Shown in pieces: positions 22,034-57,802 of a stretch of DNA of 64,000 nucleotides. Origin of the DNA: Heterodontus francisci (lineage: Eukaryota); NCBI RefSeq assembly GCF_036365525.1, contig NC_090383.1, forward strand, positions 13,397,126 to 13,461,125. The letters run 5' to 3'. The notes under the pieces were generated by a model. That model was given only the letters and a program-made list of their open reading frames with translations. It was not told where the DNA came from and did not search any database. Position numbers and translations under genes: made by a program. Each line of letters starts with the position of its first letter. The stretch's first letter is position 1.

Positions 22034-24110
22034 TGTATTTCAGGTTACTTTTGTTGGTATGCACTCCAACCTGAAATATTCTGACTCGTCTTTCTTTTCT
22101 CTTTTTCTAGGGTCTTGTCAATGCGAGGCAGTATCATTTTCTGTAATGAACACCTTGGGGTTCTGGAGACACATGGCTCCAACATACAGGAGTCTAGCCT
22201 TACTGGATTTGACAAGTGTGGTGTGGTGGGGGGGTGGGGGGGGTTGGTGGTGCGGGGTGCAGGGGTGTTGAGGGGGGAGGCGGCGGGGGGTTGCAGTCAG
22301 CTTGATTGGCTTCATGCCCATTAATAATACGTTATGGTCTGTTCTCATGCAAATAACCCTGTAGGAATGTCCAGTACCTGGGCTACAGCAGGAGATAGGG
22401 TAGATGAGACTGCTTCCTTTTAGATGACCACACATCTGTCTAAACTAGCCTAAGAAATAAGGAAGTGTCAGTTAGTGTGCCGGCACCGGTCACCACTACT
22501 TTCTTGGACATGGCTACAATTACAGCAAGGTCTCTTCACTTCCTCTGCAGTACAACACCACCTCCATCTCTTAGCGTTCACAATGTACACCACCGGCCTC
22601 CCACTCCATTTGATCCTCTCACTGAAGGAGCATTTAGACATAATAGGTTAGGCAGCAGAAGAAGCACTTGTTACAGACGCACCAATGAGGACTATAGTAT
22701 TAAGCAGACTGTTATGTAATTCTTTCCTGCATTAGAGCAGTGTACACTTCATAAGCACTTAATTTATTGTAAAACACTTTGGGAGAACCTGAGGTCATGA
22801 AAGGCACAATTTAAATTCTTTCTTTTTTCTTTCATTATATCACCAAATAAATTTGGAGCATTTTATTTTCCAGTAACGTGGACAGTTTTTGTTCGAGAGG
22901 GCTATGCTAAGGAAACAAATGATGATAGGAAAGTGCAAGATAGCAGCTAAATGACAGCAAATGAAAATGGACAGCACGCTGTTTCTGAGAACACTGAGTG
23001 ATTTCACATTTGACTGCAATACTTGCTCAGGATCCAGATCTGGGAATTATTGGAAGCAGTTCTCAGTGAGCGCCTTCTGAAATCAATCTCTCTCATTGCA
23101 ACTTTACTGCCCCCATTTTCTTCTCCTTTTGCTCTTCGGCCCCATTTTCTATTGCTGGACTGAGGTGGGTGGTAGGGGTGCTCCATTTCACCCTGCTTAG
23201 TCCTCTTTGTATTGACAAGTTATGCAACATTTGATAGGCTGGGATTATTTTGGGCACCTCCACTGGACTAGAGAGAAAGACCTCAGCTGAGTGATCCAGA
23301 TTCCTTGCTTTGCAATCCCAATAATGTCTTCACAGTAATCCTGGCTGAGGTCCAGGATTACAATACGGTTTCTATGCAATGGAATACGTGTTAAATGGAA
23401 AGCTATATCTATGTGATCAGAGATGTGAAAGCTTTTAATTCTGACATTGTTACAGTGGAAAGTGACAAGGGCAGCAAGTAAATCAAATGCTTCTGGTACT
23501 TTTCAGTGCTTAATCTGTCATAGTGTGTGTCAAATGAGACTTTGAAGGGGCCAAGAGCTTTCTTCTGACATCCTGTCCATTTGTGAACATCATGGTAATG
23601 GCATAATAAAGTGGCAATGCAAATATCGGACCCTCAAAATTGATCAACTCTGACCCAAGGGGGAAGCAGCTCTGGCTTTCCCATCATGTAACAGCAAGTG
23701 CGGTGTGAATTGGCCACTCGAGGTAAGTTTGTTTGCTTCCCTTTGTGGGGACAGGAGGGGCATGACCCCAAATCCCCTATATCCGTATTGTGAGATCCCC
23801 TCACATTCCCCCTCCCCCCGCACCTCCCATCAGAGCAGCAGTTCCTTGGCCATCCCGAATTTCAGCATTCACCTCCCATCCACTTCCCCCATGTTCCAGA
23901 CCAGAATTCAGCCGGTATTATGTTAGTGAGCTTCGGTGGTTAAAATCGTCATGGTTTTACACTGCTGCAGGTGGCTTGAACCTTAACTCAAACCAGCTAC
24001 AAAGCTCCTGACAGTTAAAATCCCACCCCTCCCAAGTATCCATTTTCAATTCTATCTGAACTTTGTACTGAATCTTGTGGTCTGATTATTTTTCAATAGT
24101 AACAGGAGAT

Positions 24111-26005
24111 TTTTTTTAATTCATTCATGGGATGTGGACATCGCTGGCTAAGCCAGCATTTATTGCCCATCCCTAATTGCCCTTGAGAAGGTGGTGGTGA
24201 GCTGCCTTCTTGAACCGCTGCAGTCCGTATGGGGTAGGTACACCCATAGTGCGGTTGGGGAATTCCAGGATTATGACCCAGCGACAGAGAAGGAACGGCG
24301 ATATAGTTCCAAGTCAGGATGGTGTGTGACTTAGAGGGGAACTTGCAGGTGGTGGTGTTCCCGTGCATTTGCTGCCACTGCCCTTCTAGGTGGTAGAGGT
24401 CGCGGGTTTGGAAGGTGCTGTATAAGGAGCCTTGGTACATTGCTGCAGCGCATCTTGTAGATAGTACACACAGCTGCCACTGTGCATCGGTGGTGGAGGG
24501 AGTGAATGTTTGTGGATGGGGTGCCAATCAAGTGGGTGGTTTTGTCCTGGAAGGTATCAAGTTTCTTGAGTGTTGTTGGACCTGCACCCATCCAGGCAAA
24601 TGGAGAGTATTCCATCACACTCCTGACTTGTGCCTTGTAGATGGTGGACAGGCTTTGGGGAGTCAGGGGGTGAGTTACTCGTTGCAGCATTCTGTGAAGA
24701 AATGTTGCAGGATTCCTAGCCTCTGACCTGCTCTTGTAGCTATGGTATTTGTATGGCTACTCCATTTCAGTCTCTGGATGTTGATGAAAGTGGGGGATTC
24801 AGCGATCATAATGCCACTGAATATCAAGGGGAGGTGGTTAGATCCTCTTTTGTTCGAGATGGTCATTGCCTGGCACTTGTGTGGCGCAACTGTTACTTGC
24901 CACTTATCAACCCAAGCCTGGATATTGTCCAGGTCTTGCTACATTTCTTCATAGTCTCCTTCAGTATCTAAGGAGTCGTGAATGGGGCACATTCCCACTT
25001 CTGATCTTATGATTGAAGGAAGGTCATTAATGAAGCAGCTGAAGATGGTTGGGCCTAGGACTCTACCCTGAGGAACTCCTGCAGTGATGTCCTGGAGCTG
25101 AGACGATTGACCTCCAACAACCACAACCATCTTCCTTTGTGCTCGGTATGACTCCAACCAGCAGAGAGTACATCTTACAGATGGTACACAGTGCTGCCAC
25201 TGTGTGTAGGTGGTGGAGGGAGTGAATGTTGAAGGTGGTGGTTGGGGTGCCAATCAAGCGGGCTGTTTTGTCCTGGATGGTGTCAAGCTTTTTGCGTGTT
25301 GTTGGAGCTGCACCCATCCAAGCAAGTGGAGAGTATTCCATCACACTCCTAACTTGTGCCTTGTAGATGGTGGAGAGGCATTGGGGAGTCAGGAGGTGAG
25401 TTACTCATCGCAGAATTCCCATCCTCTGACCTGCTCTTGTAGCCACAGTATTTATCTGGCTGGTCCAGTTAAGTTTCTGGTCAATGGTAACCCCCAGGAT
25501 ATTAATAGTGGGGGATTCAGTGATGGTAATGCCATTGAACATCAAGGGAAGATCGTTGATTCTCTCTTGTTTGGGATGGTCATTGCCTGACACTTGTGTG
25601 GCACGAATGTTACTTGCCACTTATCAGCCCAAGCCGGGATGTTGCCCAGGTCTTGCTGCATCTGGACATGGGCTGCTTCAGTATCTGAGGAGTCGCGAAT
25701 GATGCTGAACTTTGTGCAAACATCCCCACTTCTGACCTTATGATGGAGGGAAGATCATTGATGAAGCAGATGAAGATGGTTGGACCTAGGACACTACCTT
25801 GAGAAACTCCTGCAGTGATGTCCTGGAACTATGATTGACCTCCAACAGCCACAACCATCTTCCTTTGCGCTCAGTATGACTCCAACCAGTGGAGAGTTTT
25901 CCCCCTGATTCCCATTGACTTCAGTTTTGCTAGGGCTCCTTGATGCCGTACTCGGTAAATGTTGCCTTGATGTCAAGGGCAGTCACTCTCACCTCACCTC
26001 ACCTC
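24111..26005 (-). mobile_element. Two overlapping or tandem fragments of the tRNA-headed LINE family (RT and 3' end)
   Basis: ORFs with AGVPQG..LGPTIFSCFINDLP and MEYSP; sequence jumps back at ~25168 to repeat the region starting ~24450. Confidence 0.9.
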
Positions 26006-28428: not shown

Positions 28429-29084
28429 ATAGAAACATAGAAAATAGGAGCAGGAGTAGGCCATTCGGCCCTTCGAGCCTGCTCCACCATTCATTATGAT
28501 CATGGCTGATCATCCAACTCAGTAACCTGATCCCGCTTTCCCCCCCCATATCCTTTGATCCCTTTCGACTCAAGAGCTATATCTAACTCCTTCTTGAAAA
28601 CATACAATGTTTTGGCCTCAACTGCTTTCTGTGGTAGCGAATTCCACAGGCTCACCACTCTCTGGGTGAAGACATTTCTCCTCATATCAGTCCTGAAAGG
28701 TTTACCCCGTATCCTTAGACTATGACCCCTGATTCTGGACTCCCCCACCATCGGGAACATCCTTCCTGCATCTACCCTGTCAACTGTTAGAATTTTATAG
28801 GTTTCTATGAGATCCCCCCTCACTCTTCTGAACTCCAGCGAATATAATCCTAACCAACTCAATCTCTCCTCATACATCAGTCCTGCCATCTCAGGAATCA
28901 ATCTGGTAAACCTTCGCTGCACTCCCTCTATAGCAAGAACATCCTTCCTCAGATAAGGAGACCAAAACTGCACACAATATTCCAGCCAGACATCCCTGCT
29001 CCTGTACTCGAATCCTCTCGCTATGAAGGCCAACATACCATTTGCCTTTTCTACCGCCTGTTGCACCTGCATGTTTACCTTCAG
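28429..29084 (-). mobile_element. CR1 (HER1-like) LINE 3' fragment
   Basis: ORF 28500..29072 LEYCVQFWSPYLRKD..LEFRRVRGDLIETYKI..WNSLP; 3' UTR with short tandem tail. Confidence 0.92.
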
Positions 29085-29436
29085 TATTGCGTCAGGAATG
29101 CAGCAATATTGTATGGGATTAGTCTGAAAGCCTGGCTAAAGAGGACTGATGAGAAGCTGCGGTTAAGAAAGCTGCCATAGTCAAGATTGATTACCTCAAT
29201 TTTACAAATCCTAGCATAGGCAATGGAGAATCTGTAGAAATGTATCTGATTTTTTTATCGCAACTCGAGCCATGCGAAGTATATTTGAGGTGATGCTTTA
29301 CTTAACAGAAAAGTGGAATTTCCTTTAGCCTGATCCTCAAGATTCACCACGTTGAATATCGTTGTGGTTTAGTATCTGACGTCAATCATTGTTTTTTGAA
29401 GTGCATTCAATGGATATTGAATTGGACACCTGCTGA

Positions 29437-36781: not shown

Positions 36782-38344
36782 GAGATTGCAGAACTCTACG
36801 ATACAGAGGGATCTGGGTGTCCTGGTACATGAATCACTAAAAGTTAGGATGCAGGTACAGCAAGTGATTAAGAAGGCAAATGGAATGTTGGTGTTTGTTG
36901 CAGGGGGAATCGAGTATAAAAGCAAGCAAGTTTTGCTACAGTTGAACAGGGCATTGGTGAGACCGCTTCTGGAGTGCTGCATACAGTTTTTGTCCCCTTA
37001 CGAAAGGATATAATTGCATTCAATTCAGTTGAATTGCAACTGCAAACAGTTCAGAGAAGGCTCACTCGATGGATACCTGGAATGAAGGGGTTATTTTATG
37101 AGGAAAGGTTGGACAGGTTGGGCTGTATCCATTGGAGTTCAGAAGAATGAGAGGTAATCTTACTGAAACATATAAGATCCTGAGGGAATTTAATAGGGTG
37201 GATGCTGAGAGGATGTTTCCCCTTATGAGAGAAACGAGAACTGGGGACACAGTGTAAAAATAAGGGGCTGCATTTTAAGACTCCGCCACCCCAAATAGGT
37301 GGGTGCGTAAAAAAATGCAGCCCGCACGAATGGGGGCCACACTGCGGAGCTGCTGCGATTCCAAACGGCTCATTACCATATCTGGGGCAGCCACCACCCC
37401 CCGATCACCTATAGGGGGCGGGTGAGCCGTCACCGGCAACAGCGTCCTTCGCTAATGTGCAGGCGCCATTTTTAAATGGCTTACAGCCCTCAATGAGCAC
37501 AGAAATTTAAAGGGCCAGTTACTGTAAAATTTTGTAAAAATGATTAAAATAACCTTTCTATGCACTCTCCCACCACAACCCCCCACACCCCTGCCCCACC
37601 GACAATGGCATATCGCAAAAATCCTCTTCTCCCCCCCCCCACCCCCAGAATACCCCCCCCCCCCATAGTTCAGAACCTATGTCCTTTACCCCTTCCCATC
37701 ACCATCCCCCCGACCAATCCGCAGCATTGTAACCCCGCTCCACCACCCTGCACCCCCCACCCCCTGCACAGAGTAAATCACTTCCTCCCCCTTCCCCACA
37801 GGTCTCGCGTCTCGTTTCCCTGAACGGGGATTCGAAGGCGCAGCATTGCCGGCCGCCAGAATAAAGATTACAACGCATTGGCAGAATCGCTATGGACTGC
37901 ATGGTAAGTAGGCATTAACATATTTTAATGCTGGTCCCATCGCTGAGCAGGGGGCGTGGCCGCCAGAAGGCCTCGCTGCAGCCGAGATCGGTATGGGGCC
38001 TGCCGCCGTCAGGGTCAGTGGCGAGCCTCCTCCTTTCCAATCTGCATTGCCCCCCTGCCATTGTTCTGGGCTGCGGACAGGCTTTAAAATCCAGTCCAAG
38101 GGGTCTCTCATTTAAGATGGAGATGGGGAGAAATGTTTTCTGTTGAGTGTCGTTAGTCTGTGGAATTCTCTTCCCAAGAGAGCAGTGAAGGCAGGGTCAT
38201 TGAATATTTTTAAGGCTGAGTTACATAGATTCTTGATTGACAAGGGACTCAAAGGGTATGGGGATAGATAGGAAAGTAGAGTTGAGGCCACATTCAGATC
38301 AGCCATGATCTTATCAAATGGTGGAGCAGGCCTGAGGGTCCGAA
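36782..38344 (+). mobile_element. CR1 3' fragment interrupted by a MITE and by the tRNA-headed LINE; last piece at 41593-41623
   Basis: QRDLGVLVHESLK..LVRPLLECCIQF; 3' UTR GAGCAGGCCTGAGGGTCCGAAT continues as AATGGCCTACTCCTGCT at 41594. Confidence 0.85.
37266..38097. mobile_element. PIF/Harbinger-type MITE
   Basis: Termini GGGCTGCATTTTAA and TTAAAATCCAGTCC; 3-bp TSD AAG inside the CR1. Confidence 0.85.
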
Positions 38345-41300
38345 TTTTTTATCTATTCATTCATGGGATGTGGGCGTCGCTGGCCAGGCCAGCATTTATT
38401 GCCCATCCCTAATTGCACTTGAGAAGGTGGTGGTGAGCTGCTTTCTTGAACCGCAGCAGTCCATGTGGGGTAGGTACACCCACAGTGCTGTTAGGAAAGG
38501 AGTTCCAGGATTTTGTCCGAGCAACAGTGAAGGAACGGCGATATAGTTCCAAGTCAGGATGGTGTGTGATTTGGAGGGGAACATGCAGGCGGTGGTGTTC
38601 CCATGTATTTGCTGCCCTTGTCCTTCTAGTTGGTAGAGGTCGCGGGTTTGGAAGGAGCCTTGGTGCAGTGCTGCAGTGCATCTTGCAGATGGTACACACT
38701 GTTGCCACTGTGCGTTGGTGGTGGAGGGAGTGAATGTTTGTGGATGGGGTGCCAATTAAGCGGGCTGCTTTGTCCTAGATGGTGTCGAGCTTCTTGAGTG
38801 TTGTTGGAGCTGCACCCATCCAGGCAAGTGGAGAGTATTCCATCACACTCCTGACTTGTGCCTTGTAGATGGTGGACAGGCTTTAGGGAGTCAGGGGGTG
38901 AGTTACTCACCGCAGGATTCCTAGCCTCTGACCTGCTCTTGTAGCCACGGTATTTATATGGCTACTGCAGTTCAGTTTCTGGTCAATGGTAGCCCCTAGG
39001 ATGTTGATAGTGGGGCATTCAGCGATGGTAATGCCATTGAATGTCAAGGGGAGATGGTTAGATTCTCTCTTGTTGGAGATGGTCATTGCCTGGCACTTGT
39101 GTGGTGCAAATGTTACTTGCCACTTATCAGCCCAAGCCTGGATATTGTCCAGGTCTTGCTGCATTTCGACACGGACTGCTTCAGTATCTGAGGAGTCACG
39201 AATGGTGCTGAACATTGTACAATCATCAGCGAACATCCCCACTTCTGACCTTATGATTGAAGGAAGGTCATTGATGAAGCAGCTGAAGATGGTTGGGCCG
39301 AGGACATTACCCTGAGGAACTCCTGCAGTGATGTCCTGGAGCTCAGATGATTGACCTCCAACAACCACAACCATCTTCCTTTGTGCTAGGTATGACTCCA
39401 GCCAGTGGAGGGTTTTCCCCCTGATTCCCATTGACCTCAGCTTTGTAGGGCTCCTTGATGCCATACTCGGTCAAATGCTGCCTTGATGTCAAGGGCAGTC
39501 ACTCTCACCTCAACTCTGGAGTTCAGCTCTTTTGTCCATGTTTGAACCAAGGCTGTAATGAGGTCAGGAGCTGAGTGGCCCTGGCGGAACCCAAACTGAG
39601 CGTCACTGAGCAGGTTGTTGCTAAGCAAGTGCCGCGTGATGGCACTGTTGATGACACCTTCCATTACTTTACTGATAATTGAGAGTAGGCTGATGGGGCG
39701 TTAATTGGCCGGGTTGGACTTGTCCTGCTTTTTGTGTACAGGACATACCTGGGCAATTTTCCACATTGCAGGGTAGATGCCAGTGTTGTAGCTGTACTGG
39801 AACAGCTTGGCTAGGGGCGCGGCAAGTTCTGGAGCACAGGTCTTCAGTACTATTGCCGGAATATTGTCAGGGCCCACAGCCTTTGCTGTATCCAGTGCCT
39901 TCAGTCGTTTCTTGATGTCACGCGGAGTGAATCAAATTGGCTGAAGTCTGGCATCTGTGATGCTGGGGATTTCAGGAGGAGGCAGAGATGGATCATCAAC
40001 TCGGCACTTCTGGCTGAAGATTGTTGCAAATGCTTCAGCCCTATCTTTTGCACTGATGTACTGGGCTCCCCCATCATTGAGGATGGGGATATTTGTGGAG
40101 CCACCTCCTCCAGTTAGTTGTTTAATTGTCCACCACCATTCATGGCTGGATGTGGCAGGACTGCAGAGCTTAGATCTGATCCATTGGTTATGGGATCGCT
40201 TAGCTCTGTCTACCGGATGCTGCTTACGCAGTTTGGCACACAAGTAGTCCTGGGTTGTAGCTTCACCAGGTTGACACCTCATTTTGAGGTATGCCTGGTG
40301 CTGCTCCTGGCATGCCCTCCTGCACTCTTCATTAAACCAGGGTTGGTCTCCTGGTTTGATGGTAATGGTAGAGTGGGGGATATGCCGGGCCATGAGGTTA
40401 CAGATTGTGGATGAGTACAATTCTGCTGCTGCTGATGGGCCACAGCGTCTCATGGATGCCAAGTTTTGCGTTGCTAGATCTGTTTGAAATCTATCCCATT
40501 TAGCACGGTGATAGTGCCACACAACACAATGGAGGGTATCCCCAATGTGAAGGCGGGACTTCGTCTCCACAAGTACTGTGCGGTGGTCACTCCTACCAAT
40601 ACTGTCATGGACATAAGCCTCTGCAGCAGGCATATTGGTGACGACAAGGTCAAGTAGACCCAGTCTAGCAGCTATGTCCTTTAGGACTCGGCCAGCTCGG
40701 TCAGTAGTGGTGCTACCAAGCCACTCATGGTGATGGACATTGAAGCCCCCCACCCAGAGTACATTTTGTGCCCTTGCCACCCTCAGTGCTTCCTCCAAGT
40801 GGTGTTCAACATGGTGGAGTACTGAGTCATCAGCTGAGGGAGGGCGGTAGGTGGTACTCAGTAAGAGGTTACCTTGCCCATGTTTGACCTGATGTCATGT
40901 GACTTCATGGGGTCCAGAGTGAGGTTGAGGACTCCCAGGGCAACTCCCTCCCTACTGTATACCACTGTGCCACCACCTCTGGTGGGTCTGTCCTGCCGGT
41001 GGGACAGGACATACCCGGGGATGGTGACGGCAGTGTCTGGGACATTGTCTGTAAGGTATGATTCCATGAGTATGACTATGTCAGGCTGTTGCTTGAGTAG
41101 TCTGTGGGACAGCTTTCCCAACTTTGGCACAAGCCCCCAGATGTTAGTAAGGAGGACTTTGCAGGGCCGACAGGGCTGGGTTTGCCATTGTCGTTTCCGG
41201 TGCCTAGGTCGATGCCGGGTGGTCCGTCCAGTTTCATTCCTTTTTATTGACTTCGTAGCAGTTAGGTACAACTGAGTGGCTTGCTAGGCCATTTCAGAGG

Positions 41301-41590
41301 GCATGTAAGAGTCAACCACATTGCTGTGGATCTAGAGTCACATGTCGGCCAGACCAGGTAAGGACAGCAGATTTCCTTCCCTAAAGGACATTAGTGAACC
41401 AGATGGGTTTTTACAACAATCGACAATGGTTTCATGGCCATCATTAGACTAGCTTTTAATTCCAGATTTATTAATTAAGTTCAAATTCCATCTTCTGCTG
41501 TGGTGGGATTCGAACCCATGTCCCCAGAGAAATACCTTGGGTCTCTGGTTTACTAGTCCAGTGATAATACCACTACACCACTGCCTACCC
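38345..41590 (-). mobile_element. Near full-length single-ORF CR1-group LINE (APE endonuclease + RT) with tRNA-like 5' head
   Basis: APE motifs LTNIWGL, PDIVILMES, RQDR..GGG, SDH; RT motifs QFGFR, LDIKAAFDRVWH, GVPQG..LGP, FADD; (ATGA)n tail; several frameshifts and stops. Confidence 0.92.
41500..41590 (-). promoter_or_regulatory. tRNA-derived Pol III internal promoter (Ser/Leu-like, long variable arm)
   Basis: A box TGGTGTAGTGG (41570-41580), B box GGTTCGAATCC (41506-41516), anticodon-arm-like CTGGA-CTAGTAA-ACCAG. Confidence 0.75.
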
Positions 41591-41623
41591 TTAAATGGCC
41601 TACTCCTGCTTCTCATTCGTATG

Positions 41624-42305
41624 AAAGTGGCAGTGGCAGGATGTCAGTCGGATCTTCGTGGAGGCAGCCAATTAAGAAGATGCCTCTGGGAACCCAGACC
41701 CATTAAGGGTGTGTCGGGTGGAGCAGGGAAGCAGGAGGCCGAATCAGAGGACCCGCTGCAATGTCAGGCCAGCAGCCTCACTGGCAGAGAAGGGCGCTGC
41801 TAAGGCAGGCAGGTGAGCACAAGGGCACCACAAAATGGAGGCGCCCTCGGTTGCCTGCAGAGGTGTCAACAAATACCATAGACAGTAGGGCCATCGGTGG
41901 GGGGACAGGTCACCTCTCCGCAGGAATAGTGACAGATGAGGTTGTGACCTTAGATCCCCTGGCCCCATCATTGGGGTACGGAGCCTCCAGCTCTGATGGC
42001 CACTCAGTGTGCGGCTGGGAGGTCGCCCAATGAGCTGGCAGCCTCTGAACTCGGCAGGGCTGTGGGAGGGGCGGCTCCATAAGCTGGGAAAATACCTGCG
42101 TCATCGCAAAATGGCCCCTAAGTGGGGCCTCAATTGCTGTAATTGGCTGCCTCTCTCCTTGGAGCAGGCAGCTGACCCCTGGTCCCTGGGAGGCGGGGAA
42201 TGCATCAGGGAGCCGTTCCGATGTCGCTCACCCCACTACTTTCTTGCCATCCCACCCACCCCTAACCTCCAACTACGTCTCCATGGGACCAGGAAAATTC
42301 AGCCC
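41624..42305. mobile_element. Harbinger-type MITE remnant (right end)
   Basis: Ends GAAAATTCAGCCC; GC-rich body with CCCCTAAGTGG..CAATT motif shared with other MITEs. Confidence 0.55.
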
Positions 42306-43985
42306 TCACAAGCCTTTGAGTGAAGAAATTTCTCCTTTTTCAGTCCTAAATGACCAACCCCTTGTTTTGAGACAGTGAGCCCCTAGTTCTAGACTCTCCA
42401 GCCAGGCGAAATATTCTCTCAGCATCTGCCCTGTCAAGACTGCGAGGAATTTTATATGTTTCAATGAGATCACCTCTCATTATTCTAAACTCTAGAGATT
42501 GTAGGCCCAGTCTACTCAATCCATCCTCATTGGACAAACATCTTATCCCAGGAATCAACCTAGTGAGCCTTTGTTGCACTTCCTCTAAGACAAGTATATC
42601 TTTCCTTAAGTAAGGAGAACAAAACTGTATGCAGTACTCCAGGTGTGGTCTCATGACGGCCCTATTTAATTGCAGTACGTTTTCTTTACTCTCATACTCC
42701 AATCCTTTTTTAACCTGCATGTTAACTTTCTGTAATTTATATAAAAGGACACCAAGGTCCTTCTGAATCCCAACATTTCCCAGTCTCTCACCTTTTAAAA
42801 AATATTCTGTGTTTTTATTTTTCCTGCATAAGTGGATAACTTCACATTTCTCCACATTATATCCCATCTACCACGTTCTTGCCCACTGATTTAACCTGTT
42901 TACATCCCTCTGCAGCACCTGTGTGTCTTTCTCAAAGCTTACTTTCTCAGTTAACTCACAGTTGGTCCCCTCATCCAGCTGACCCAAGCAATGAAAATGA
43001 TCCATTTATTCCTATTCTCTGTTTTCTGTCCATTAACCAATCCTCACTCTATGCTAATATATTACCCCCAAACCCATGAGCCCTAATTTTGTGTAATCAC
43101 CTTTTGTATGGCACCTTATCGAATACTTTCTGAAAATCCAAATACATTACATCCACAGGTTACCCCTTATCTACTCTCCCAGTTACAACCTCAAAAGCTC
43201 TAACAGATTTTTCAGACATGATTTCCTGTTGAATCTGCTGCATCATATTATTACTTTCTAAATGCCCTGTTACCTAATAACAGATTCTAGGATTTTACCT
43301 ACTACTGATGTCAGGTCCTGGTTACTTTCTCCATACGTTCTTGAATAGCAGGGTTATATTTGCTACCTTTCAATCCATGGAAACCATTCTAAAATCTAGA
43401 GAATTCAGGAAGATCAAAACCAATGCATCCACTATGTCTGTAGCCACCTCGTTTAAAGCCATCAGGTCTAGGGGATTTGTTGGTTTTTAGTCCCATTCAT
43501 TTCTCTAGTACTATTGCTTTGCTAATAATAATTTCTTTAAGTTCCTTATTCTCACGAGATTCTTGATTCCCTACTATTTCTGGAATGTTTTGTGTCTTCT
43601 ACCATGAAGACAGATATAAAGTATTTATTTAATGTCTCTGCCACTTCCTTATTCTCCAGTGTAATTTCTCCTATCTCTGCCTGTATGGAATGTATGTTTA
43701 TTTTCACTAATCTCTTCCTTTTTACATGCCTATAGAAGCTTTTACAATCTGTTTTTATGTCTCTTGCTAGTTTACTCTCAGATCCAATTTTCTCATTCTT
43801 TAACAATTTCTTGGTCATTCTTTGCTGAATTTCAAAATCCTCCCAATCATCAGGCTTATTACTCTTTTTGACATTATAAGCCCCCCTTCTTTAATTTAAT
43901 AATTTAATACTACCTTAAACTTCTCTTGTTAGCCACAGTTGGACCACTTTTCCAGTGGGGTTTTTATTTCTCAAGGAAATGTAAA
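42306..43985 (-). mobile_element. CR1 LINE ORF2 fragment, decayed
   Basis: ORF 42346..42867 NVEKCEVIH..QKDLGV..RPHLEYCIQFCSPYLRKD; ORF 43552..43818 LARDIKTDCKSFYRHVK. Confidence 0.88.
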
Positions 43986-44359: not shown

Positions 44360-46722
44360 CTCTGCGGCAGGTGGTGAAGGAACCAACAAGAGGAAAAAGC
44401 ATACTTGACCTCGTCCTCACCAATCTGCCTGCCACAGATGCAACTGTCCATGACAGTATTGGTGGGAGTGACCACCGCACAGTTCTAGTGGAGACGAAGT
44501 TCCGCCTTCACATTGAGGATACGCTCCATCGTGTTGTGTGGCTCGACCACCCTGCTAAATGGGATAGATTTTGAACGGATCTAGCAATGCAAAACTGGGC
44601 ATCCATGAGGCGCTGTGGGCCATCAGCAGCAGCAGAATTGTACTCAACCACAAACTGTAACCTCAAGGCCCGGCATATCCCCCACTCTACCATTACCATC
44701 AAGCTAGGAGACCAACCCTGGTTCAATGAAGAGTGCAGGAGGGTATGCCAGGGGCAGCACCAGGCATACCTCAAAATGAGTTGTCAAGCTGGTGAAGTTA
44801 CAACCCAGGACTACTTGCATGCCAAACTGCGTAAGCAGCATCCGATAGACAGAGCTAAGCGATCCCACAACCAACGGATCAGATCTAGGCTCTGCAGTCC
44901 TGCCACATCCAGCCGTGAATGGTGGTGGACAATTAAATAACTAACTGGAGGAGGTGGCTCCACAAATATCCCCATCCTCAATGATGGGGGGGGAGCCCAG
45001 CACATCAGTGCAAAAGATAAGGCTGAAGCATTTGCAACAATCTTCAGCCAGAAGTGCCGAGTTGATGATCCATCTCTGCCTCCTCCTGAAGTTCCCAGCA
45101 TCACAGATGCCAGACTTCAGCCAATTCGATTCACTCCGCATATCAAGAAATGACTGAAGGCACTGGATACAGCAAAGGCTGTGGGCCCTGACAATATTCC
45201 AGCAATAGTACTGAAGACCTGTGCTCCAGAACTTGCCGCGCCCCTAGCCAAGCTGTTCCAGTACAGCTACAACACTGGCATCTACCCGACAATGTGGAAA
45301 ATTGCCCAGGTATGTCCTGTATACAAAAAGCAGGACAAGTCCAACCCGGCCAATTAATGCCCCATCTGCCTACTCTCAATTATCAGTAAAGTGATGGAAG
45401 GTGTCATCAACAGTGCCATCAAGCAGCATTTGCTGAGCAATAACCTGCTCAGTGATGCTCAGTTTGGGTTCCACCAGGGCCACTCAGCTCCTGACCTCAT
45501 TATAGCCTTGGTTCAAACATGGATAAACGAGTTGAACTCAAGAGGTGAGGGGAGAGTGACTGCCCTTGACATCAAGGCAGCATTTGACCGAGTTTGGCAT
45601 CGAGGAGCCCTAGCAAAACTGAAATCAATGGGAATCAGGGGGAAAACTCTCTTCTGTTTGGAGTCATACCTAATGCAAAGGAAGATGGCTGTGGTTGTTG
45701 GAGGTCAATCATCTGAGCTCCAGGACATCACTGCAGGGGTTCCTTAGGGTAGTGTCCAAGGCCCAACCATCTTCAGCTGCTTCATCAATGACCTTCCTTC
45801 AATCATTAGGTCAGAAGTGGGGATATTACCTGATGATTGCACAATGTTCAGCACCATTCACGACTCCTCAGATACTGAAGCAGTCTGTGTAGAAGTGCAG
45901 GAAGACCTGAACAATATCCAGTCTTGGGCTGATAAGTGGCAAGTAACATCTGCGCCACACAAGTGCCAGACAATGACCATCTCCAACAAGAGAGAATCTA
46001 ACCATCTCCCCTTGACATTCAATGGCATTACCATCACTGAATCCCCCACTATCAACATCCTCCGGGCTACCATTGACCAGAAACTGAACTGGAGTAGCCA
46101 TATAAATACCGTGGCTACAAGAACAGGTCAGAGGCTGCGAATCCTACAGCGAGTAACTCATCTCCTGACTCTCCAAAGTCTTTCCACCATCTACATGGCA
46201 CAAGTCAGGAGTGTGATGGAATACTCTCCACTTGCCTGGATGGGTGCAGCTTCAACAACACTCAAGAAGCTCGATACCATCCAGGACAAAGCAGTCCGCT
46301 TGATTGTCACCCCATCCACAAACATTCACTCCCTCCATCACCGACATAAAGTGGCAGCAGTGTGTACCATCTACAAGATGCTCTGCAGAAACGCATCAAG
46401 GCTCCTTAGACAGCACCTTCCAAACCCACGACCTCTACTAACTAGAAGGACAAGGGTAGCAAATGTATGGCAACACAACCACCTGCAAGTTCCCCTCCAA
46501 GTCACACACCATCCTGACTTGGAACTATATCGCCGTTCCTTCACTGTTGCTGGGACACAATCCTGGAATTCCCTTCCTAACAACACTGTGGATGTACCTA
46601 CCTCACATGGACTGCAGCGGTTCAAGAAGGCAGCTCACCACCACATTCTCAAGTGCAATTAGGGATGGGCAATAAATGCTGGCGTAGCCAGCGATGCCCC
46701 ATCCCATGAATGAATAAAAAAA
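44360..46722 (+). mobile_element. 5'-truncated copy of the tRNA-headed LINE family
   Basis: Close reverse-complement match to 38350-40655; ORFs 44371, 44587, 45391 and 45817; ATGAATGAATAAAA tail. Confidence 0.92.
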
Positions 46723-47099
46723 ACCAAAATGTATTAACTTGAGGGACACACACAGAGGGTTGAATTTTATCGGCCCCTCGACGCCGTGGGTCGCAGTGCG
46801 GGGGCGGGAAAATTCTGCGAGGAGTGGGCCGCCTCGACTCGCGACGTTGAGATGGGTCCGCCGCATATTACCAGTGGTGGCAGGACCTCAGTGCGCCCCC
46901 CACTCCCTGCCACACGGCTAGGCAATCAATATTTCGTAATGATTACTTACCTTTGCTGATTATGCAGCCCGCCGACTCTCCACCGACACTGCCTGATTTT
47001 TCATTGAATGGCCAGGCATCATGTGCCGTCCCATTCACAATCTGAAAAGCCGGCGGGTCCTCACTCTGCATTATAGACGGGGGGGGGGGGGGGTTACTC

Positions 47100-47275
47100 A
47101 GGGGTCTAAGTGTGAATTCTTAAAGGGTGGAGGGAGTGGGGGATATGCAGGGGTCTAACTCTGCATTCTGGAAAGGACGAGGGAGGGGGATACACTGGGG
47201 TCTAACTCTGCATTCTTAAAGGGTGGAGGGAGGGGGGGATATGCAGGGGTCTAACTCCGCATTCTGAAAGGGAGG
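47100..47275. repeat. G-rich minisatellite, ~48-bp unit, ~4 copies
   Basis: GGGGTCTAACTCTGCATTCT recurs at ~47101, 47150, 47197 and 47246. Confidence 0.8.
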
Positions 47276-47839
47276 GGGTCTGGGATTACTGGAGGGAAAG
47301 CTGTACTGGCATGAAGGGAGGTACCATGTACCATCCTCTGTTAACAGTGTACATTCTGTGTTTGTGAGGGGGCAATGGCACACTAGGCACCCTGTGTTTG
47401 GGGAGGGTGCCAGAAAGGGCAGGAGCATTGAGGTTTTATGGATGGTGGGGGCAATCGATTCAGCTGGTAGGATCTTGATGTGGTCATGCTGTGCCACTCT
47501 GAGTGTTGGCCAAGATGGGCAATGCCATGGCACGCCACATAGTTGATCCAGGAAAGCAGCTGATGTACCCATCAACATCAATCCCTGCCCTGTTGGGAAC
47601 CTTCGAATGCATGGAGGGTTCAACTTTATTTATCACATGGAAATAGGTATGGCTCATCCCACATTGTGTGATCCTCTGCACGTGAGGATCCGTATGCGCC
47701 AGAGGCAATACCAACAGGCAGGTGTGATCCAGGTAGAGTCCCCTAGTCGTGAGCAGCAGCCCCCAAGGGGAGTCCGTCATTACGGTTTCCGTGCATCTAC
47801 AGGCCCCACATGACATGCCATCGGATGTCAGAGCACCAG

Positions 47840-49520: not shown

Positions 49521-51003
49521 CGATTGACAGCAGTCGCACTCTTCAGCAGTCAGGTAAGTATTTCTTTGACAGCTGTCAGGAAGCAGATGCCGGGGTGCTT
49601 AAAATAGGCCGCGATTAATATCGCGGGGGCTCGGTGGCAGCCAGCGAATGCGGGCGCACACCGAGTTCAAAGGACAGATGGCGGCGCCCCAATAAAATTC
49701 AGCCCAGAGGGTGGGATTTCAATTCCTGTGCCCGATTTAAAGGGCAGCATCAGCCATTGCTGAGGCTGTCGTCCATCCACAAAATAGAGGCAATGGACAG
49801 GCAGGGCTCCTGTGCTACAAATGGGCAGTAGGTCCAGAAAATGCTCCAGAAGTTCTAACAGTAACAAAAGATTCCATTTATATAACACCTTTCATGTAGA
49901 GACACCTCCTAAACAGAGGCATCAGGAGACTTAAACACTAATCCAAAAGGAGAGATAAGGAAGAGTGGCCATAAAAAGGATCTGTACTTTAAATGTTAGC
50001 CTGTCCTTTCTTTTCTCATATGCTGTTAGACTTGCCAGCATTTTTCATGAGGGTTTTCCACTTTTATTTTGGGCTGTATTGGGTCCTCTCTCTCCAGTGT
50101 ACCTTGGCAATTTGATGCTGCTGTGAACTCTGCATCATTTCTGCTGCCAGCTCTGTGAGGACCATCTGACAGTCTTCTATCCTCATTGCTGTCTTTTTCT
50201 TCTGTCCTAGCATAGTTGATCACTCCCAGCTCTGTCACCACAAGCTGCTAACAAGCTCGTTAATGGCCTTAAATGGTCATTCCACAAGTTTGGGCGGGTT
50301 GCCTCTTCCACCTCCGTTCGTCATGTTGTAAAGTCTGAGTGTGCTGGTCTCGCATCAGCAAACCAGTACGCCAACCCCAGGTGTACGGGTTTCAGTAACT
50401 GCCCACCTCTGAACACGCCCTTTCCAGCAATCCAAAATCCCACTCACGGTCTCTTTCCTCATGCTAAATGAGCTACTTTTAAAAGAGGCAGAAATTAAGG
50501 CAGACTGATAGAAGTGAAGGAGAAAGACAAAAACAAAAGTAAATGACGAGAGCAAAAGGCAGAAGAGAAGGAGGATAGTGAAAGAAAGAAGTAAAGGAGG
50601 AGAGGTTTTCTTTCCAGACTGCACTATCAGCTTACTTATCCAAAGGGATGAGACAGACTGAGAGGTTTTTTTTGGAGCCCAAGGTTTTTTAAGGAGTCCA
50701 GTCTGAAAAACTTTGAGAACCACTGAATCACATAGTTTTGTTCAAATTTATTAACAAGAATGATAATTGTTTTGGGCAAGCCTTGAACAAAGGTATATGT
50801 GTGAGGGGCATGTATGTGGGCAGGGCAGGAAATGGGCAAGGCGTGTGTAGGGTGGACCTCTGGTCGTCCTAGCATCACTTTGTTGGTGGTTGTGACTATA
50901 GGGCCAAGTAGTGCACTGAGAGTTTACTTCTCGCATTGCATGGCCACGCCTTTGCTATTAGAGAGCACCTACTAGTCTTGATCCTGGGGAAGCTTTGAGT
51001 AAA

Positions 51004-52546
51004 ATGGCGATAACCAATCTTCGAGCTTCAGGCCAGGGAGTGCGCAACACCGTTTGGGTGGTCGTGAAGGACAAGGAAGGTGATGCACCGGTCGATCATA
51101 CCTTCTTCATCAAGAAAATTCTCTTCGATTGCTGCGGATTTCAAGCGATGGACGTCTTCTGCCTGCAGGATTTCCCCAGCAGTGGATACTTCGACGTGAC
51201 GTTCCGGAACGTGGCGGGATGCATCAAGTTCCTGAAGGCGTTCAAGGAGAAAGGATACTGGGCGCCACTGTCGATCCTCACAGCGGAGCCGCTCTTCACG
51301 CTTCCGTCACAACGGGACCGGGTGGTGACGATTCACCTCTACAACTCCCATGTTCCGGTGGTGGATGTACTCACCTTTCTTGCCAGGTACGTCGAGGTGG
51401 CCGGCAGCAGCACTGATGTCAAGGACCCCTTTGGGATTTGGACCAGCAAGCAGCAGGTCAAGGTGACCTTGAAGGTCGAACCCAGTGGAGCCATCATCCA
51501 CCCTCCCTCCAGCTTCGCTATCGGGGGAAATCGAGGCTTCTTGGTCTATGCTGGGCAGCCCAGAGTTTGCCGCACCTGTGGCAAATCTGGTCACGTGGTG
51601 GCCAACTGCAGCACGGTTGTTTGCAAGAACTGCAAGAAGGAAGGCCATCAGACCAAGGACTGTAAGCAGACTAAGTGTTGCAACTTGTGCGGTGCGGCAG
51701 GCCATCTCTACAAAATCTGCCCCAAACGCTGCCTCAGTTATGCTCAGGCGGCAAGGTCCAAGGAAAGGCCGGGAGAAGGTTCGATGAAGGCGTCCGGTGT
51801 TCGAAAGGAGACCAGCAAACTTCTCCGCAGTGAGGAACTTCAACCTGAGAAGGAGAAGGAAGGGGAGGCAGCTGAAACCAGCGACCCAGCACCTACCCTG
51901 CGCTCAGAAACCCCTCCTCCACAGACAGAATCAATGGAGGAGGAGGCAGCAGATGGACAAACAGGTAAGTGGCAAGTGGTCCAGAGGAAAACCACAAAGA
52001 AAAACATCCCAAAGTGGAACAGGCCACCACCCAAACCAGTGGCAAGAGGAGGCTATCTTCTGAATCAGACTGCAACAACTCCTCTTCACTGGACGTGGGA
52101 ATGCTGGAACGACAGCCCCTTCAAAAGAGGCGGCAGAACTCCAGGGAGATGGAAGATAAAGCATCCCAGCCCCCGGGCACTGGAAGCTGTGATGGGCCCA
52201 GCGTGCCCCAACCCCAAATCGCCGCACGTAACGACGTGGCCAACGCATCCCAGCTCCGGGACACCGAGAGCAAAGACGCGTCTGGTGCACCTCAGCTCCG
52301 GGAAGCCGGGAGCAGTGATGTTTTCGAGGAGGAACAGATGGAAGCAGCAGAGGATAACCCAATCTTTGCTGCCTACAAGACCCCCCCCCCCCGATGTCAC
52401 CCCAGCGGACGAACCCCTGCATGAAAAACCAGGCGGGGTTTCTGAGCCCAAATCTTGTGAAACAGCTTGCTCACATGATGGGTATGCAGGAACATCCCGA
52501 AGGACTGGGACTAGCAAGGACAAATGGTATGGGAAGCAACAACTAA
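51004..52546 (+). pseudogene. Tx1 ORF1 (RRM-like region, three CCHC zinc knuckles, low-complexity tail); frameshifted near 52010 and 52390
   Basis: CRTCGKSGHVVANC, CKNCKKEGHQTKDC, CNLCGAAGHLYKIC; FDVTF motif. Confidence 0.88.
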
Positions 52547-52556
52547 CTTTAAAAAA

Positions 52557-55500
52557 ATGGGTGTAAAGATTGCTTCCATTAATGTGCGTAGCATTAAGTC
52601 TACTACGCGATGTGTTTCAACCTTGGATTACCTCGCCGATGTTCCGATGAAGGGTCACTGACCTGAAACGTTAACTCTGCTTCTCTTTCCACAGATGCTG
52701 CCAGACCTGCTGAGTGGTTCCAGCATTTCTTGTTTTTATTTCAAAGCCGACCTACTGTTTCTGCAGGAGTGTGGAATACCACACCTCAGCACCTACAGGC
52801 AGTGGTTGCGATGGTGGTCCCACGGGCCATCGATCTGGTCGGGGGGTAATGATTGCCGTTCCTCCGGCCTGGGTATTCTGCTGCAGGGAGGTAACTTCAC
52901 CATCTCCGAAGTTAAGGAGGTGGTGGGCGGTCGCCTCCTCGTAGCAGACGTAATGTACAACAACGCTACACTCCGGTTGATCAACATGTATGCCCCGGTA
53001 CAACGCAGCGAATGGCTGACTGTCTTCCAGCAGCTCCCACTGCTGCTGGCGACGTGCAGGCCGGTCATCCTAGGCGGTGACTTCAACTGCATCATCGATG
53101 CGGCTGGACGATCCGGCAGTGACGACAGCAAACTGGACGCTACGTCCAGATTCCTAATAGAAACAGTTAAAGATGCCAAACTGCATGACGTCTTCAGCAA
53201 ACCTGCAGAGGGAGCGCAGCGCAGATACATATGGTCAAGATCGGACGGGTCTGCCGGTTCCAGGATTGACTTCCTGTTTGTGTCCCGTGCCGTCACAGTC
53301 GGATCCACTGACGTCAAGCCGGTGTTCTTCTCCGACCACTGCCTCTTACTGGCCAACTGTCACTTACAGGACGACCAGCAGGTTGGCAGAGGGACGTGGA
53401 AGCTCAATACTACATTGCTGACCCCAGAGAATGTTGAGGAACTCAAAAGGGATTACAAAGGTTGGAGGACCGTGAAACCCCTCTTTGAGTCTCCAGTTCA
53501 CTGGTGGGAAGCGATTAAGGAGAACATCAAGAGGTTCTTCATCCACAAAGGTGTTCAGAAGGCGAGAGAGAGACAGAGGGAAATGTCCCGACTCCAGAAA
53601 AGTATGCAAAATCTGCTCTGGTTGCAGTCAATGGGGGTCGAGGTCAAGGAGGACCTCCAAGAGGTGAAGAGCCAGCAGGCCTTGCTCTTTGCCACGGAGG
53701 CCTCCAAGATCATCTTCCGGTCCAGAGTCCGCTCCATCGAGCAGGATGAGACGTGCTCGCGTTACTTCTTCCAAAAGGTACACAGAGAGAGCTGTTATCA
53801 GCAGCCTGAAGGAAGAAGATGGCTCGGTAACGTCTTCGCAGTCCAACATACTAAGGATCAGCAAATCCTTTTATGCGGGGCTGTATGACGCGAAGCCCAC
53901 AGACAGCAGAGCCTCCCAGTCCTTCCTGTCATCTATCACAGAGGTCTTAGAGGACAGCAGGAGGGAGAGACTGGACAAGCCACTAACTCTGGAGGAGCTG
54001 ACAAAGGCCGTCGAGTCCTTCGAGACAAGTAAAACTCCCGGGAGCGACGGCTTACCGGTCGAGTTGTACTCGGCCCTGTGGGACTGGGTCGGCCCGGACC
54101 TGCTGGAGGTATACGAGAGTATGCTCCTGGCTGGCAGCATGTCAGAATCCATGAGGAAAGGCATCATCACCCTCATTTACAAGCAGAAGGGAGAGAGGGC
54201 AGAAATAAGAAATTGGCGGCCCATCTCACTGCTTAATGTTGACTACAAGATTCTGTCCAAAGTCATAGCCAGTCGAGTCAAATCTGCTCTGGAGTTGGTG
54301 ATTCACCCCGATCAGACCTACACTGTACTCGGCAGGAAGATCTCTGATAGTCTCTCGCCTATGTACGGGACAGGAGGGTGGACACCTGCCTCATCAGCCT
54401 GGACCAGGAGAAGGCTTTTGACAGGATATCGCACACCTACATGATGGACGTGCTTTCCAAAATGAGGTTTGGGGAGGGAATCTGCAATTGGATCCAACTG
54501 CTCTGCACAAACATCAGTAGCGCAGTCTCAATCAATGGGTGGGAATTGGAAAGTTTCCCGATCAAATCTGGAGTCAGACAGAGCTGTCCTCTCTCCCCGG
54601 TCTTGTTTGTTTGCTGTATTGAACCCTTTGCTGAGTCTATTAGGAAGGATGCGAGCATAGGAGGGGTGACAATCCCAGGCAGCGGAGGCACTCAGGTTAA
54701 AACCTCCCTGTACATGGATGACGTCGCCGTCTTCTGCTCGGATCCGCTGTCCATGCGCAGACTGATGAGCATCTGTGACCACTTCGAACTGGCCTCGGGA
54801 GCCAAAGTTAACCACGGCAAGAGCGAGGCCATGTTCTTTGGGAACTGGGCTGACCGATCCTTTGTGCCCTTCACCGTCAGGTCAGACTACCTGAAGGTGC
54901 TGGGGATATGGTGCGGAAGGGCTTGCACCAAAACCTGGGAGGAGCGAGTAACCAAGGTACAACAAAGGTTGAGCATGTGGGGGCAGCGATCTCTCTCTAT
55001 TGTGGGTAAGAACCTGGTCATCCGGTGCGAGGCGCTCACGTTGTTGCTGTACGTGGCGCAGGTCTGGCCATTTCCCGGTCTGGTCACCTGAGCCATTTTC
55101 CGCTTCATCTGGGGATCTAAAATGGACCGGGTCCGGAGGGACACGATGTTCAAACCTCTGGATAAGGGCGGGAAAAATGTACCCAATGTGGCGCTCATCC
55201 TGATGACCACCTTCGTGTGTGGCTGCATCAAGCTGTGTGTAGATCTCCAGTACGCAAACTCCAAGTGTCACTACGTGCTGAGGTTCTATCTGTCCCCGGT
55301 GTTGCAAAGGATGGGCTTGGTCACATTGCCGCGGAACACTCCATCCAGTTGGACCGTGCCGTACCACCTATCCTTTGTGGAGCAGTTTCTGCGGAAAAAC
55401 ACCTTTGACCACATGTCCATCAGGCAGTGGTCTGCACGGAATGTCCTCAAGGCCCTACGGGAAAAGGGGGATCCTGTCGGATGGTTCCCCGAGCAGACCG

Positions 55501-56018
55501 CCAAAGTCATTTGGCAGAATGCCTCATCACCAGAACTTTCAAACAAGCACCAAGATGTAGCTTGGCTGGTGGTGAGAAGGGCCCTCCCCGTCAGATCCTT
55601 CCTGCACGCCCGAAGTCTCGCCCCCTCTGCACAATGCCCTCAAGGTGGCTGTGGTGGGGAAGAGACGGTTTCCCACCTCCTCCTGGAATGTGTCTTTGCA
55701 AAGCAGGTGTGGAAAGAGATGCAGTGGTTTTTGTCGAGGTTAATGCCAAGCTGCTCTGTAACACAGGAGTCTGTGCTCTACGGGCTGTTCCCAGGGACGC
55801 ACACCGAGACAAACATCAACTGCTGCTGGAGGACTATCAATCCGGTGAAAGACGCCCTTTGGTCTGCCCGATACTTGCTAGTCTTCCAGCGCAAAGAGTT
55901 GTCCACGACCGAATGTTGCAGACTGGCACATTCCAAGGTCCAGGACTATGTGCTGAGGGACGCACTAAAGCTTGGGGCAGCCGCAGCAAAGGTTCAATGG
56001 GGAAAGATCACAGTGTAA
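52557..56018 (+). pseudogene. Tx1 ORF2 (APE endonuclease, RT, C-terminal zinc finger), disrupted
   Basis: MGVKIASINVRS, FLQE, GGDFN, SRIDF, FSDH, KTPGSDG, NWRPISLLNVDYK, LDQEKAFD, YMDD, CPQGGCGGEETVSHLLLEC; several frameshifts. Confidence 0.92.
52641..52742 (+). mobile_element. Penelope-type repeat with hammerhead-like motif inserted into Tx1 ORF2
   Basis: GTT-CCGATGA-AGGGTCactGACCT-GAAACGTT-AAC; interrupts LDYLA..KADLLFLQE. Confidence 0.8.
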
Positions 56019-57199
56019 GGTCCCCCCACCAAGCTGAACTGAGGGGCTGGATCCATGGGAAACCCCTCGAACTGTATCGGAGAAATTTTGTGTGCTGTAA
56101 ATGTAAAAATGTATATGGCATAACAATGAAATGGAAGGGTTGTGAGGCAACTCAAAATTGTATAGAAGGAAACTGATCACCTTTGCACTGTTTGTATTTT
56201 TTGACTTGATGCTGTTTTAAACTGTTTGGGAATGTAATTTTTACAGATTTTTATGAATAAAGTATATTTTGAAAATTGAAAAAAACCTACTAGTCTTTCC
56301 TACCTTGCGACTCCATCAATTCAGGGAGCTTTTTTCTCACTTGCTCCCATAAGTGATGTATTAAGACAGTATTTGCATATATTATCTGCCGTGTTTAGTG
56401 TACACTCGGACTATGGAGTTGGAGAAGCACCCCTGGCTCCAAATAAAGGTTTTCTTTTAAAAATAAACTTAGCTTTAGTTGGCGGACACTGGAAGTTGGA
56501 AGAATCCTGAGCGGGACAGGCCTGACACCTGCCCTGCTCATTGGTGACTAATTTTGCTGACTGCTACTTTAAAAGCCTTTATGGCCCTCAAAATAACATA
56601 TTTAAGAGACCTAATGCCTGAGTTAGCTGTCTACCCAGGATATCTAACAAAATATGGACACACAAATTTAGGAGATTGGGCACAGGCTTTCCGAATGGTA
56701 AATTATTTTGCTTTACACCCCTTTTACACCCCCAAAAAATGGGCAAGCCAATTTCTACCCCATTTCCACAGTAAACCTGAACATGTGACACCAGGCAAGA
56801 TGTGAAGACAGAAACAGAAAAAAAGTGAGAATTAAATAGCAGGAAATAAGAAACTAGAGAAACGATATATAATTTTACATGATACTAACTGCATCCATTC
56901 AAGTTCTGATTGTGGATTTAATAGTACCTCAAATTGCACGTGTTTCCATGACAACCCGACAGGTACCACGGCTTTCGCAATACATTTAGAGGTTAATGAA
57001 TAAAAGAAATTTCTCCATGCGCAATCATGCCAACAATTCAATAAAAAATGCAGTCAGGATAATGAGAAATTTTAGTTTTAGAAATAAAAGCAGAGAAGAA
57101 TATGTTGGAAAAAATGCAAATGCTGGGAAGCTGGAAGTAAAACAGAATATGCTGGTCAGTCAACATCTGAAAAGATAAGGCAACATGCCAGCTGCAAGT

Positions 57200-57640: not shown

Positions 57641-57802
57641 GAATTCATCCATTTTGGCAAGGCTCCTAGGCAGCAGTAGGGCTGACCTGTTCAGTTCTAT
57701 TATGTAGGTGGTTTACCCAAAGTTCAGGGGACAACAGAAATCAACCAGGCTCCTACTGTGGTGCCATTAAATTTCCAGACTAAAGAGCATTTACTCTCTC
57801 AC

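Follow-up and report, generated by a model that had tools for sequence, protein, structure and literature searches.

A head of tRNA origin and a shortage of sense-strand T runs in elasmobranch Zenon, a LINE whose source copies may be transcribed by RNA polymerase III

By the textbook division of retrotransposons, LINEs are coding elements transcribed by RNA polymerase (Pol) II, and SINEs are non-coding elements transcribed by Pol III. An insertion of 3246 nt on the minus strand (38345-41590) of a 64-kb window of the Heterodontus francisci genome, the window being the whole stretch of DNA analysed, raises the question of whether an autonomous, protein-coding LINE can be a Pol III element. The first-pass annotation of the window had described this insertion as a LINE with a tRNA head, no ORF1 and no TTTT on its sense strand, and had proposed that it is transcribed by Pol III. 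By sequence comparison, the element is elasmobranch Zenon, a 3.3-kb single-ORF (APE+RT) LINE of the family of Stuart et al. (2026).

Read along the minus strand, the window copy consists of a tRNA-like head (41496-41590), a non-coding body of about 225 nt that constitutes the 5′ UTR (41270-41495), a broken APE+RT frame (38409-41283), and a 3′ UTR (38345-38408) with an AATAAA (38395-38400) and a short A tail. The copy is full-length and decayed, lying 3.3% from the column majority of thirty copies. Within the head, a predicted Pol III internal promoter is made up of an A box (41570-41580, minus strand), whose variants among copies are mostly CpG decay, and a B box (41506-41516, minus strand). 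Both boxes had been picked out in the first reading, and ARAGORN agrees, calling a single tRNA-like gene in the 64-kb window at 41496-41584 on the minus strand. Because an Rfam search gave zero tRNA matches at E<=1 and nothing relevant, and because the head folds no better than its shuffled counterparts (z -0.5), it is a degenerate SINE-type head and not a tRNA gene. The body, in which upstream AUGs occur and whose end is the commonest junction of the SINE, had been taken for a leader of about 230 nt between head and ORF; the length stands, but the segment is not a plain leader, being a SINE body that the LINE has in common with an abundant partner SINE, as it has the 3′ UTR. The frame matches Exo_endo_phos_2 and RVT_1 in Pfam, and L1 ORF2p and R2 are its nearest solved structures; in the window copy, stops, frameshifts and the loss of about 50 nt disrupt it. 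As first described, the whole unit splits the 3′ end of an older CR1, with a 3-bp AAT duplication and 3 extra bases, and this CR1 end is uninterrupted in contigs of public runs.

Other Zenon pieces lie in the same window. A second, 5′-truncated copy (44360-46723, plus strand) has a single TTTT (44569-44572), which had been attributed to CpG decay, an attribution borne out by the five commonest variants of the site among young copies (TTTCGA-type 76+1, TTTCAA 13, TTTTGA 9, TTTCTA 2). Also on the plus strand are a copy of the partner SINE with the body joined to the tail (16155-16446), its probable head lying at 15859-15936 with another repeat in between, and an old 3′ fragment (63631-63896; 73%). 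The minus strand carries an independent internal-deletion derivative (7234-7700) with breakpoints near element nt 353 and 3123 and both ORF ends kept, a 5′-truncated, more diverged copy (24110-26000), and an old 3′ fragment 76% identical to the window copy (2081-2921).

The tRNA head belongs to the family, not just to the window copy. A query consisting of the 5′ 591 nt of the window copy (head and ORF start) was run against the 6.0-Gb genome and its best 40 matches were scored; all 40 match at 95-100% over nearly the full query length, and the 39 best matches besides the window copy all begin at the same point, give or take a few bases, and their flanks are unrelated. The search was repeated with the APE sequence only, because a query that contains the head selects for it. 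Among the 29 other loci found in this way, 21 have a contiguous head, one keeps the first 22 nt of the head and is then internally deleted, and truncation at element nt 57-362 accounts for the other seven, which by eye have nothing in common in the 30 bases upstream; only one of these 29 loci overlaps the head-selected set. The initial reading of head and ORF as one insertion is supported across the family: long copies carry the head and show no ORF1 upstream, and the copies without a contiguous head are truncated or deleted.

The head, the body, the single APE+RT frame and the A tail are mobilised together. The column majority of thirty near-full copies, which differ from it by 2.4-4.4%, is 3298 nt long, with a leader of 307 nt and one 975-codon frame at nt 308-3232; the longest natural frames among the copies have 907 codons. 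Searches aimed at much older subfamilies gave a single older subfamily besides many young copies. The 21 copies of the older subfamily lie about 8% from their own majority, and the head is present where covered. Between the young and the older subfamily, pN/pS is 0.21, compared with 0.66 for copy-private mutations; the ORF of the source lineage is under purifying selection, and the source lineage is therefore coding and autonomous. The A runs at the ends of 55 LINE copies (up to 10, mostly 7-9) represent a poly-A tail and not a microsatellite tail, and the target-site duplications of 36 full copies do not exceed those of mismatched pairs in length, except for one of 8 nt and one of 10 nt.

The head and body (nt 1-321), joined to the last ~75 nt of the LINE, also make up the partner SINE, which is present in the window and its flanks. 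Its exact junction pattern occurs at 4,747 places in the genome, against none for the reversed control, and this SINE of at least 4,747 copies is the Zenon LINE minus its middle. The 5′ end is reached at 19 of 30 junction loci examined. Compared with the young LINE ends, the short-junction class has a majority that differs at 13 of 395 positions and the GTCA class one that differs at 40 of 394; of the 12 changes diagnostic for the 5′ end of the older LINE subfamily, 10 recur in the GTCA class. The ends of SINE and LINE have therefore changed in step over time, as repeated internal deletion or exchange would lead one to expect, and further SINE-type breakpoints are seen at 7234-7700 in the window and in several joints in contigs of RNA-type runs. 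The LINE's head was likely captured, since other Zenon elements are without it.

The depletion of T runs was assessed by count and against several null models. On the sense strand of 38345-41593, runs of at least four bases number 0 for T versus 13, 13 and 8 for A, C and G, and runs of at least three number 11 versus 50, 50 and 36, so the absence of sense TTTT among common AAAA runs, originally scanned by eye, is correct. There is also no T4 in the column majority, and the single-piece full-length copies (n=36) contain none in 25 cases, one in nine and two in two. An early estimate of five to six T4 runs expected by chance was too high: the computed expectation is 4.4 for the whole element under base shuffling (P=0.010), 4.8 for the majority ORF with codons drawn by 4-fold-site composition (P=0.008), and only 2.07 for the same ORF under shuffling of its own synonymous codons (P=0.09). 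This last is the strictest null, and the P value that it gives for T4 alone is an observation against a Pol III reading.

The codon shuffle that the first-pass annotation had proposed does not give significance for T4 alone, but it reveals a depletion of TTT and of non-canonical terminators; neither this test, nor the checks for head and ORF1, nor the T4-free column majority refutes the first reading. The majority ORF has 4 T3 runs versus 12.8±2.5 expected, a number as low being found in 0 of 5000 synonymous shuffles. All four are in-frame Phe codons, and no TTT crosses a codon boundary, the chances to form one being used in 0 of 27 cases by a TTx codon after T and in 0 of 44 by an xTT codon before T; TTT is the most depleted trinucleotide of the ORF, more so than any CpG trinucleotide. 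For human Pol III, T4, T2VT3, T3VT2, TVT3, T3VT, T2AT2 and T2CT2 are active terminators, and isolated T3 and T2GT2 are nearly inactive (Orioli et al., 2011). The active motifs T4, TVT3, T3VT, T2AT2 and T2CT2 are absent from the majority ORF (0 versus 7.9 expected, P=0.0007), in which the only terminator-like remnants are T2GT2 and isolated T3. The older subfamily has no T4 and no active motif either (0 versus 8.6 expected), a result not independent of that for the young subfamily because the two are just 11% apart at synonymous sites. The depletion of T runs is real, family-wide and beyond chance; it could predate the head or have nothing to do with it.

The sole terminator-like stretch of the young subfamily is a TATTT at nt 57-61 (+57; 41530-41534 on the minus strand in the window copy), found in 55 of 78 listed young copies and absent from the older subfamily and from the visible 400 nt of the published elasmobranch Zenon rows (PMC13343379). 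TATTT stops Pol III in 42-50% of cases in mammalian assays (Vassetzky, 2021, PMC8466645), although terminator strengths come from human and rodent systems and may not hold for sharks. That a young and successful subfamily carries this motif is a further observation against a Pol III reading.

Several controls bear on the specificity of the depletion. The neighbouring Tx1 and CR1 copies had been noted as rich in sense TTTT, and the Tx1 and CR1 pieces of the window do contain 3-8 sense T4 runs each. Majorities of the same families from the same genome are undepleted, both for Tx1 (T3 22 versus 23.6 expected, T4 4 versus 5.5) and for CR1 (T3 23 versus 25.5, T4 4 versus 6.2); the latter majority replaced a smaller first CR1 control of old copies (182 codons), and L2, which gave short, old matches only, was not used. 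Among 7179 private mutations acquired after insertion, TTT was created 218 times versus 234 expected and TTTT 22 times versus 21. T runs arise freely after insertion, and the host mutation process therefore does not avoid them. All 77 related metagenome ORFs scored, from 80 loci of which 3 were without a usable ORF, have at least two T4 runs; two of them have low T3 counts (z -2.3 and -3.2), yet keep 12-13 T4 runs. L160, the sole metagenome ORF from the element's own clade among those scored, has 20 T4 runs, which speaks for a Pol III reading; what weakens the point is that the comparison at the DNA level covers this one same-clade full ORF from outside sharks. No upstream tRNA was called at any of the related metagenome loci. 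No depletion was found in the ORF for pyrimidine runs, splice-like sites, ATTTA, AATAAA or AAA/CCC/GGG, and avoidance of splice, polypyrimidine or AU-rich motifs was rejected as the cause of T-run loss. Low Phe content (1.8-2.2%) was discarded as evidence, two relatives being equally low.

At the 3′ end of the element, AATAAA is situated about 45 nt upstream of the A tail, and a T run of at least two (2-7 T) separates the element end from the tail in 20 of 55 LINE copies, with at least four T in eight. Since T elongation beside short tails also occurs after insertion (PMC8466645), this T run is compatible with a likeness to T+ SINEs and is not diagnostic, the latter being a point against a Pol III reading. 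At the 5′ end, not one of the ten AUGs ahead of the endonuclease opens the ORF, which sits poorly with ordinary cap-scanning. The first in-frame AUG of the ORF, at nt 1160, lies inside the protein and is not kept in the older subfamily; the lack of a start codon for the ORF of a presumed uncapped RNA also counts against a Pol III reading. Two short in-frame uORFs end at a stop just before the ORF, where UAG-CAA might permit leaky read-through. A conserved out-of-frame AUG at nt 354 begins a 46-codon uORF that might serve as a frameshift start, with no canonical slippery site visible by eye in the element or the supplement rows. The leader folds no better than shuffles (z +0.3), and as this is true of head and leader alike, there is no support for an IRES-like structure. 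Both the element and joints of the SINE occur in RNA-type contigs from four runs, a type of contig that does not carry strand or 5′ end; the element is plentiful there, with a 3′-rich profile like that of its copy number.

On this sequence evidence, we consider it probable that elasmobranch Zenon is a LINE with a tRNA-derived SINE head and body whose source copies are transcribed end to end (3.3 kb) by Pol III from the internal A and B boxes. A wider account, which we favour only slightly, is that an autonomous coding retrotransposon of sharks and rays switched to Pol III, with a 3.3-kb terminator-purged RNA and cap- and AUG-free translation, was kept since the shark-ray split, and gives rise to SINEs by internal deletion. 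Selection in the source lineage would have purged terminators since Pol III had to read through, and the transcript would end either at a T run immediately ahead of the A tail or in flanking sequence. As in T+ SINEs, polyadenylation of such a Pol III transcript may be possible from the AATAAA. Translation of the uncapped RNA would use a non-AUG or other cap-independent start, target-primed reverse transcription would let the encoded protein copy its own RNA, and the LINE would give rise to ready-made Pol III SINEs through internal deletions. Against this stands the view that Pol III lacks the processivity needed for long elements (PMC10886601).

Among the alternatives, a LINE still transcribed by Pol II, with a captured SINE as its 5′ UTR, could have a head that is passive or that serves Pol II as a promoter or enhancer, and could have lost its T runs through RNA stability, surveillance or a bias of its own RT. 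Such an arrangement would agree with the general use of Pol II by LINEs (PMC10886601), the canonical AATAAA ahead of the A tail, the tolerance of TATTT at +57, and the absence of a Pol III promoter from other Zenon (Wang et al., 2019, PMC6740152). We nevertheless regard it as unlikely, for the depletion is specific to sense-strand T runs and spares exactly those motifs that are inactive for Pol III, leaving splice, polypyrimidine and polyA-type motifs undepleted, the A and B boxes are recognisable across the shark and ray Zenon consensus rows of PMC13343379, and ten AUGs lie upstream. By far the least credible explanation is a one-off chimera or chance, a SINE having landed beside a truncated LINE and TTTT being absent by luck. 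Apart from the T4 count under the own-codon shuffle (P=0.09), the data refute it, given the same 5′ boundary in 39/39 head-selected and 21/29 head-free copies, a boundary shared by published consensus rows from five species (PMC13343379), and the depletion of TTT and terminator motifs (P<0.001).

The missing AUG start and the lack of a known cap-independent signal would be accommodated if labour were split, so that Pol III makes the RNA that is copied and capped Pol II read-through of copies in host genes provides the protein, acting in trans, the element being then in part a giant SINE. Read-through also predicts the abundance in RNA-type contigs and the 3′-rich profile like copy number. Even so, this appears rather less plausible than transcription by Pol II throughout: a pN/pS of 0.21 means that the lineage being copied maintained a working ORF of its own, as would follow most simply if one and the same RNA is copied and translated, and a read-through RNA meets the same missing AUG.

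If Pol III does make Zenon RNA, this RNA would be a vertebrate example of a natural, coding Pol III transcript of 3.3 kb, and one could test how far Pol III reads, by what means an uncapped RNA is translated and how a LINE manages without a Pol II promoter. It would also offer a direct route to the birth of SINEs, by deletion of the middle of a LINE that already bears a head, and a possible origin of a SINE body in a LINE 5′ UTR. Should Pol II prove to be used, sharks and rays would still share an autonomous LINE with a fixed tRNA head, on which the literature searched does not remark. The human L1 promoter was once reportedly Pol III-dependent. One review speaks in passing of 'Pol II (or pol III)' promoters for non-LTR elements at large (PMC3894237), but the literature covered, mostly titles and the starts of abstracts, with subscription papers, Repbase and Dfam aside, contained no tRNA-headed or Pol III-transcribed autonomous LINE; a text search of papers for five short element motifs gave 0 matches.

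The family is thus known, elasmobranch Zenon, and the feature is new, its 5′ end having gone unremarked. Zenon has been reported in elasmobranchs, coelacanth and hagfish, with ORF1 always missing and an A tail (Stuart et al., 2026, PMC13343379); since all Zenon elements are without ORF1, its absence here is no evidence for Pol III. As in the window, the elasmobranch elements of five species (CarCar, HypSab, RhiTyp, ScyCan and SquAca_Zenon) are described there as about 3.3 kb long with one APE+RT ORF and an A tail. In the supplement, the first 400 nt of seven elasmobranch Zenon consensus rows match head and body by eye and contain no T4, an exact body 15-mer occurs in 6 rows, and the Zenon-1 rows are 3244-3314 nt long. 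The hagfish and coelacanth rows, in contrast, have no such head by eye and several T4 runs, the coelacanth 5′ end being of low confidence. The word 'tRNA' has 0 occurrences in the text and the readable supplement of that paper, which handles elasmobranch Zenon phylogenetically and, in the parts covered, does not describe the head, the SINE partner or the T-run depletion. At the protein level, an 85% match is provided by a Heptranchias protein model, and other relatives are 33-44% identical, mostly as ORFs of 930-990 aa on contigs of 3.2-3.8 kb; viral contigs yielded 1 weak unrelated locus. A quick RT tree of 136 rows (P0027 was left out and three more rows fell under the coverage cut) places the element in a 46-row clade (SH-aLRT 97) with the lepidopteran P0053 and P0106 and the shrimp-cluster P0013, no labelled Zenon reference being among the rows, and places the genome's own CR1 apart from this clade.

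Compared with lepidopteran Zenon, a single-ORF element of 3.3-3.5 kb from which, as here, non-autonomous copies arise time and again by internal deletion (Wang et al., 2019, PMC6740152), the elasmobranch element differs in its 5′ end, a Zenon 5′ end in the supplement of the same paper having a T5 within about 100 nt, and in its derivatives, as Persaeus, a SIDE of lepidopteran Zenon, is described as without tRNA homology or a Pol III promoter. Among promoters derived from small RNAs, those of the Cassandra, Helenus and Ajax TRIMs (PMC10886601) are for Pol III, as proposed here, but these elements are non-autonomous, of LTR type and under 1.3 kb. At its 3′ end, the element resembles T+ SINEs (Vassetzky, 2021, PMC8466645) in having AATAAA, a T run of variable length and a short A tail. 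In sharks, the tRNA-derived SINE-LINE pairs HE1/HER1 and SacSINE1 share their 3′ end with a CR1-group LINE and are described, as far as the accounts covered go, as sharing the 3′ end only; they were compared by description only, and the partner SINE may equal one of them. Identity of the body with MetaSINE was rejected, bivalve Meta sequences (PMC4824008 supplement) being unlike it by eye. A tRNA head with A and B boxes, a body and a LINE-type tail are likewise found in tRNA-derived SINEs (SINE2) and bipartite LINE-derived SINEs (Kojima, 2018, PMC5786205). SINE2 elements, however, are 100-700 nt long and non-coding, whereas the present element has 3.3 kb and an ORF under purifying selection (pN/pS 0.21), and where the model of Kojima (2018) has a head added to a deleted LINE, in elasmobranch Zenon the autonomous LINE itself bears the head.

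In the majority sequence of the elasmobranch Zenon LINE (3298 nt, the numbering of which is used here), an out-of-frame AUG opens a 46-codon uORF at nt 354-494, corresponding to about 41100-41237 on the minus strand of the window, which overlaps the start of the endonuclease, and the same AUG can also be seen in the published shark and ray Zenon consensus rows. Among proteins related to the Zenon ORF, a Heptranchias model labelled aldo-keto reductase-like (P0027) contains a stretch that is 85% identical to the ORF and covers 28% of the query, reflecting either exonisation or a gene-model error.

The Zenon insertion interrupts a canonical CR1 fragment on the plus strand (about 38080-38344 and 41594-41625), and two further canonical CR1 fragments lie on the minus strand (28500-29135 and 42346-43500). 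A copy of the partner SINE, in which the Zenon head and body are joined to the Zenon tail, occupies 15859-16446 (plus strand) and is apparently itself interrupted, by an insertion of ~220 nt whose end resembles a CR1 3' tail. At six loci (L034, L038, L041, L067, L084 and L090) Zenon copies lie within or adjoin other Zenon or partner-SINE copies, a nesting that may be a mere effect of abundance.

The Tx1-like (L1-clade) LINEs, which served as a control family, are represented by a plus-strand copy with a zinc-knuckle ORF1 and an ORF2 (50962-56100) and by a second, minus-strand copy (about 58000-59700). An old minus-strand fragment, L2-like in appearance (57202-57690), has only short and weak matches elsewhere, and a short tandem-like array with a G-rich unit of roughly 45 nt was noted by eye at about 47090-47280. 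TTT is also moderately depleted in the ORFs of two unrelated metagenome LINEs (L184, z -3.2; L186, z -2.3), which despite this depletion retain many TTTT runs.
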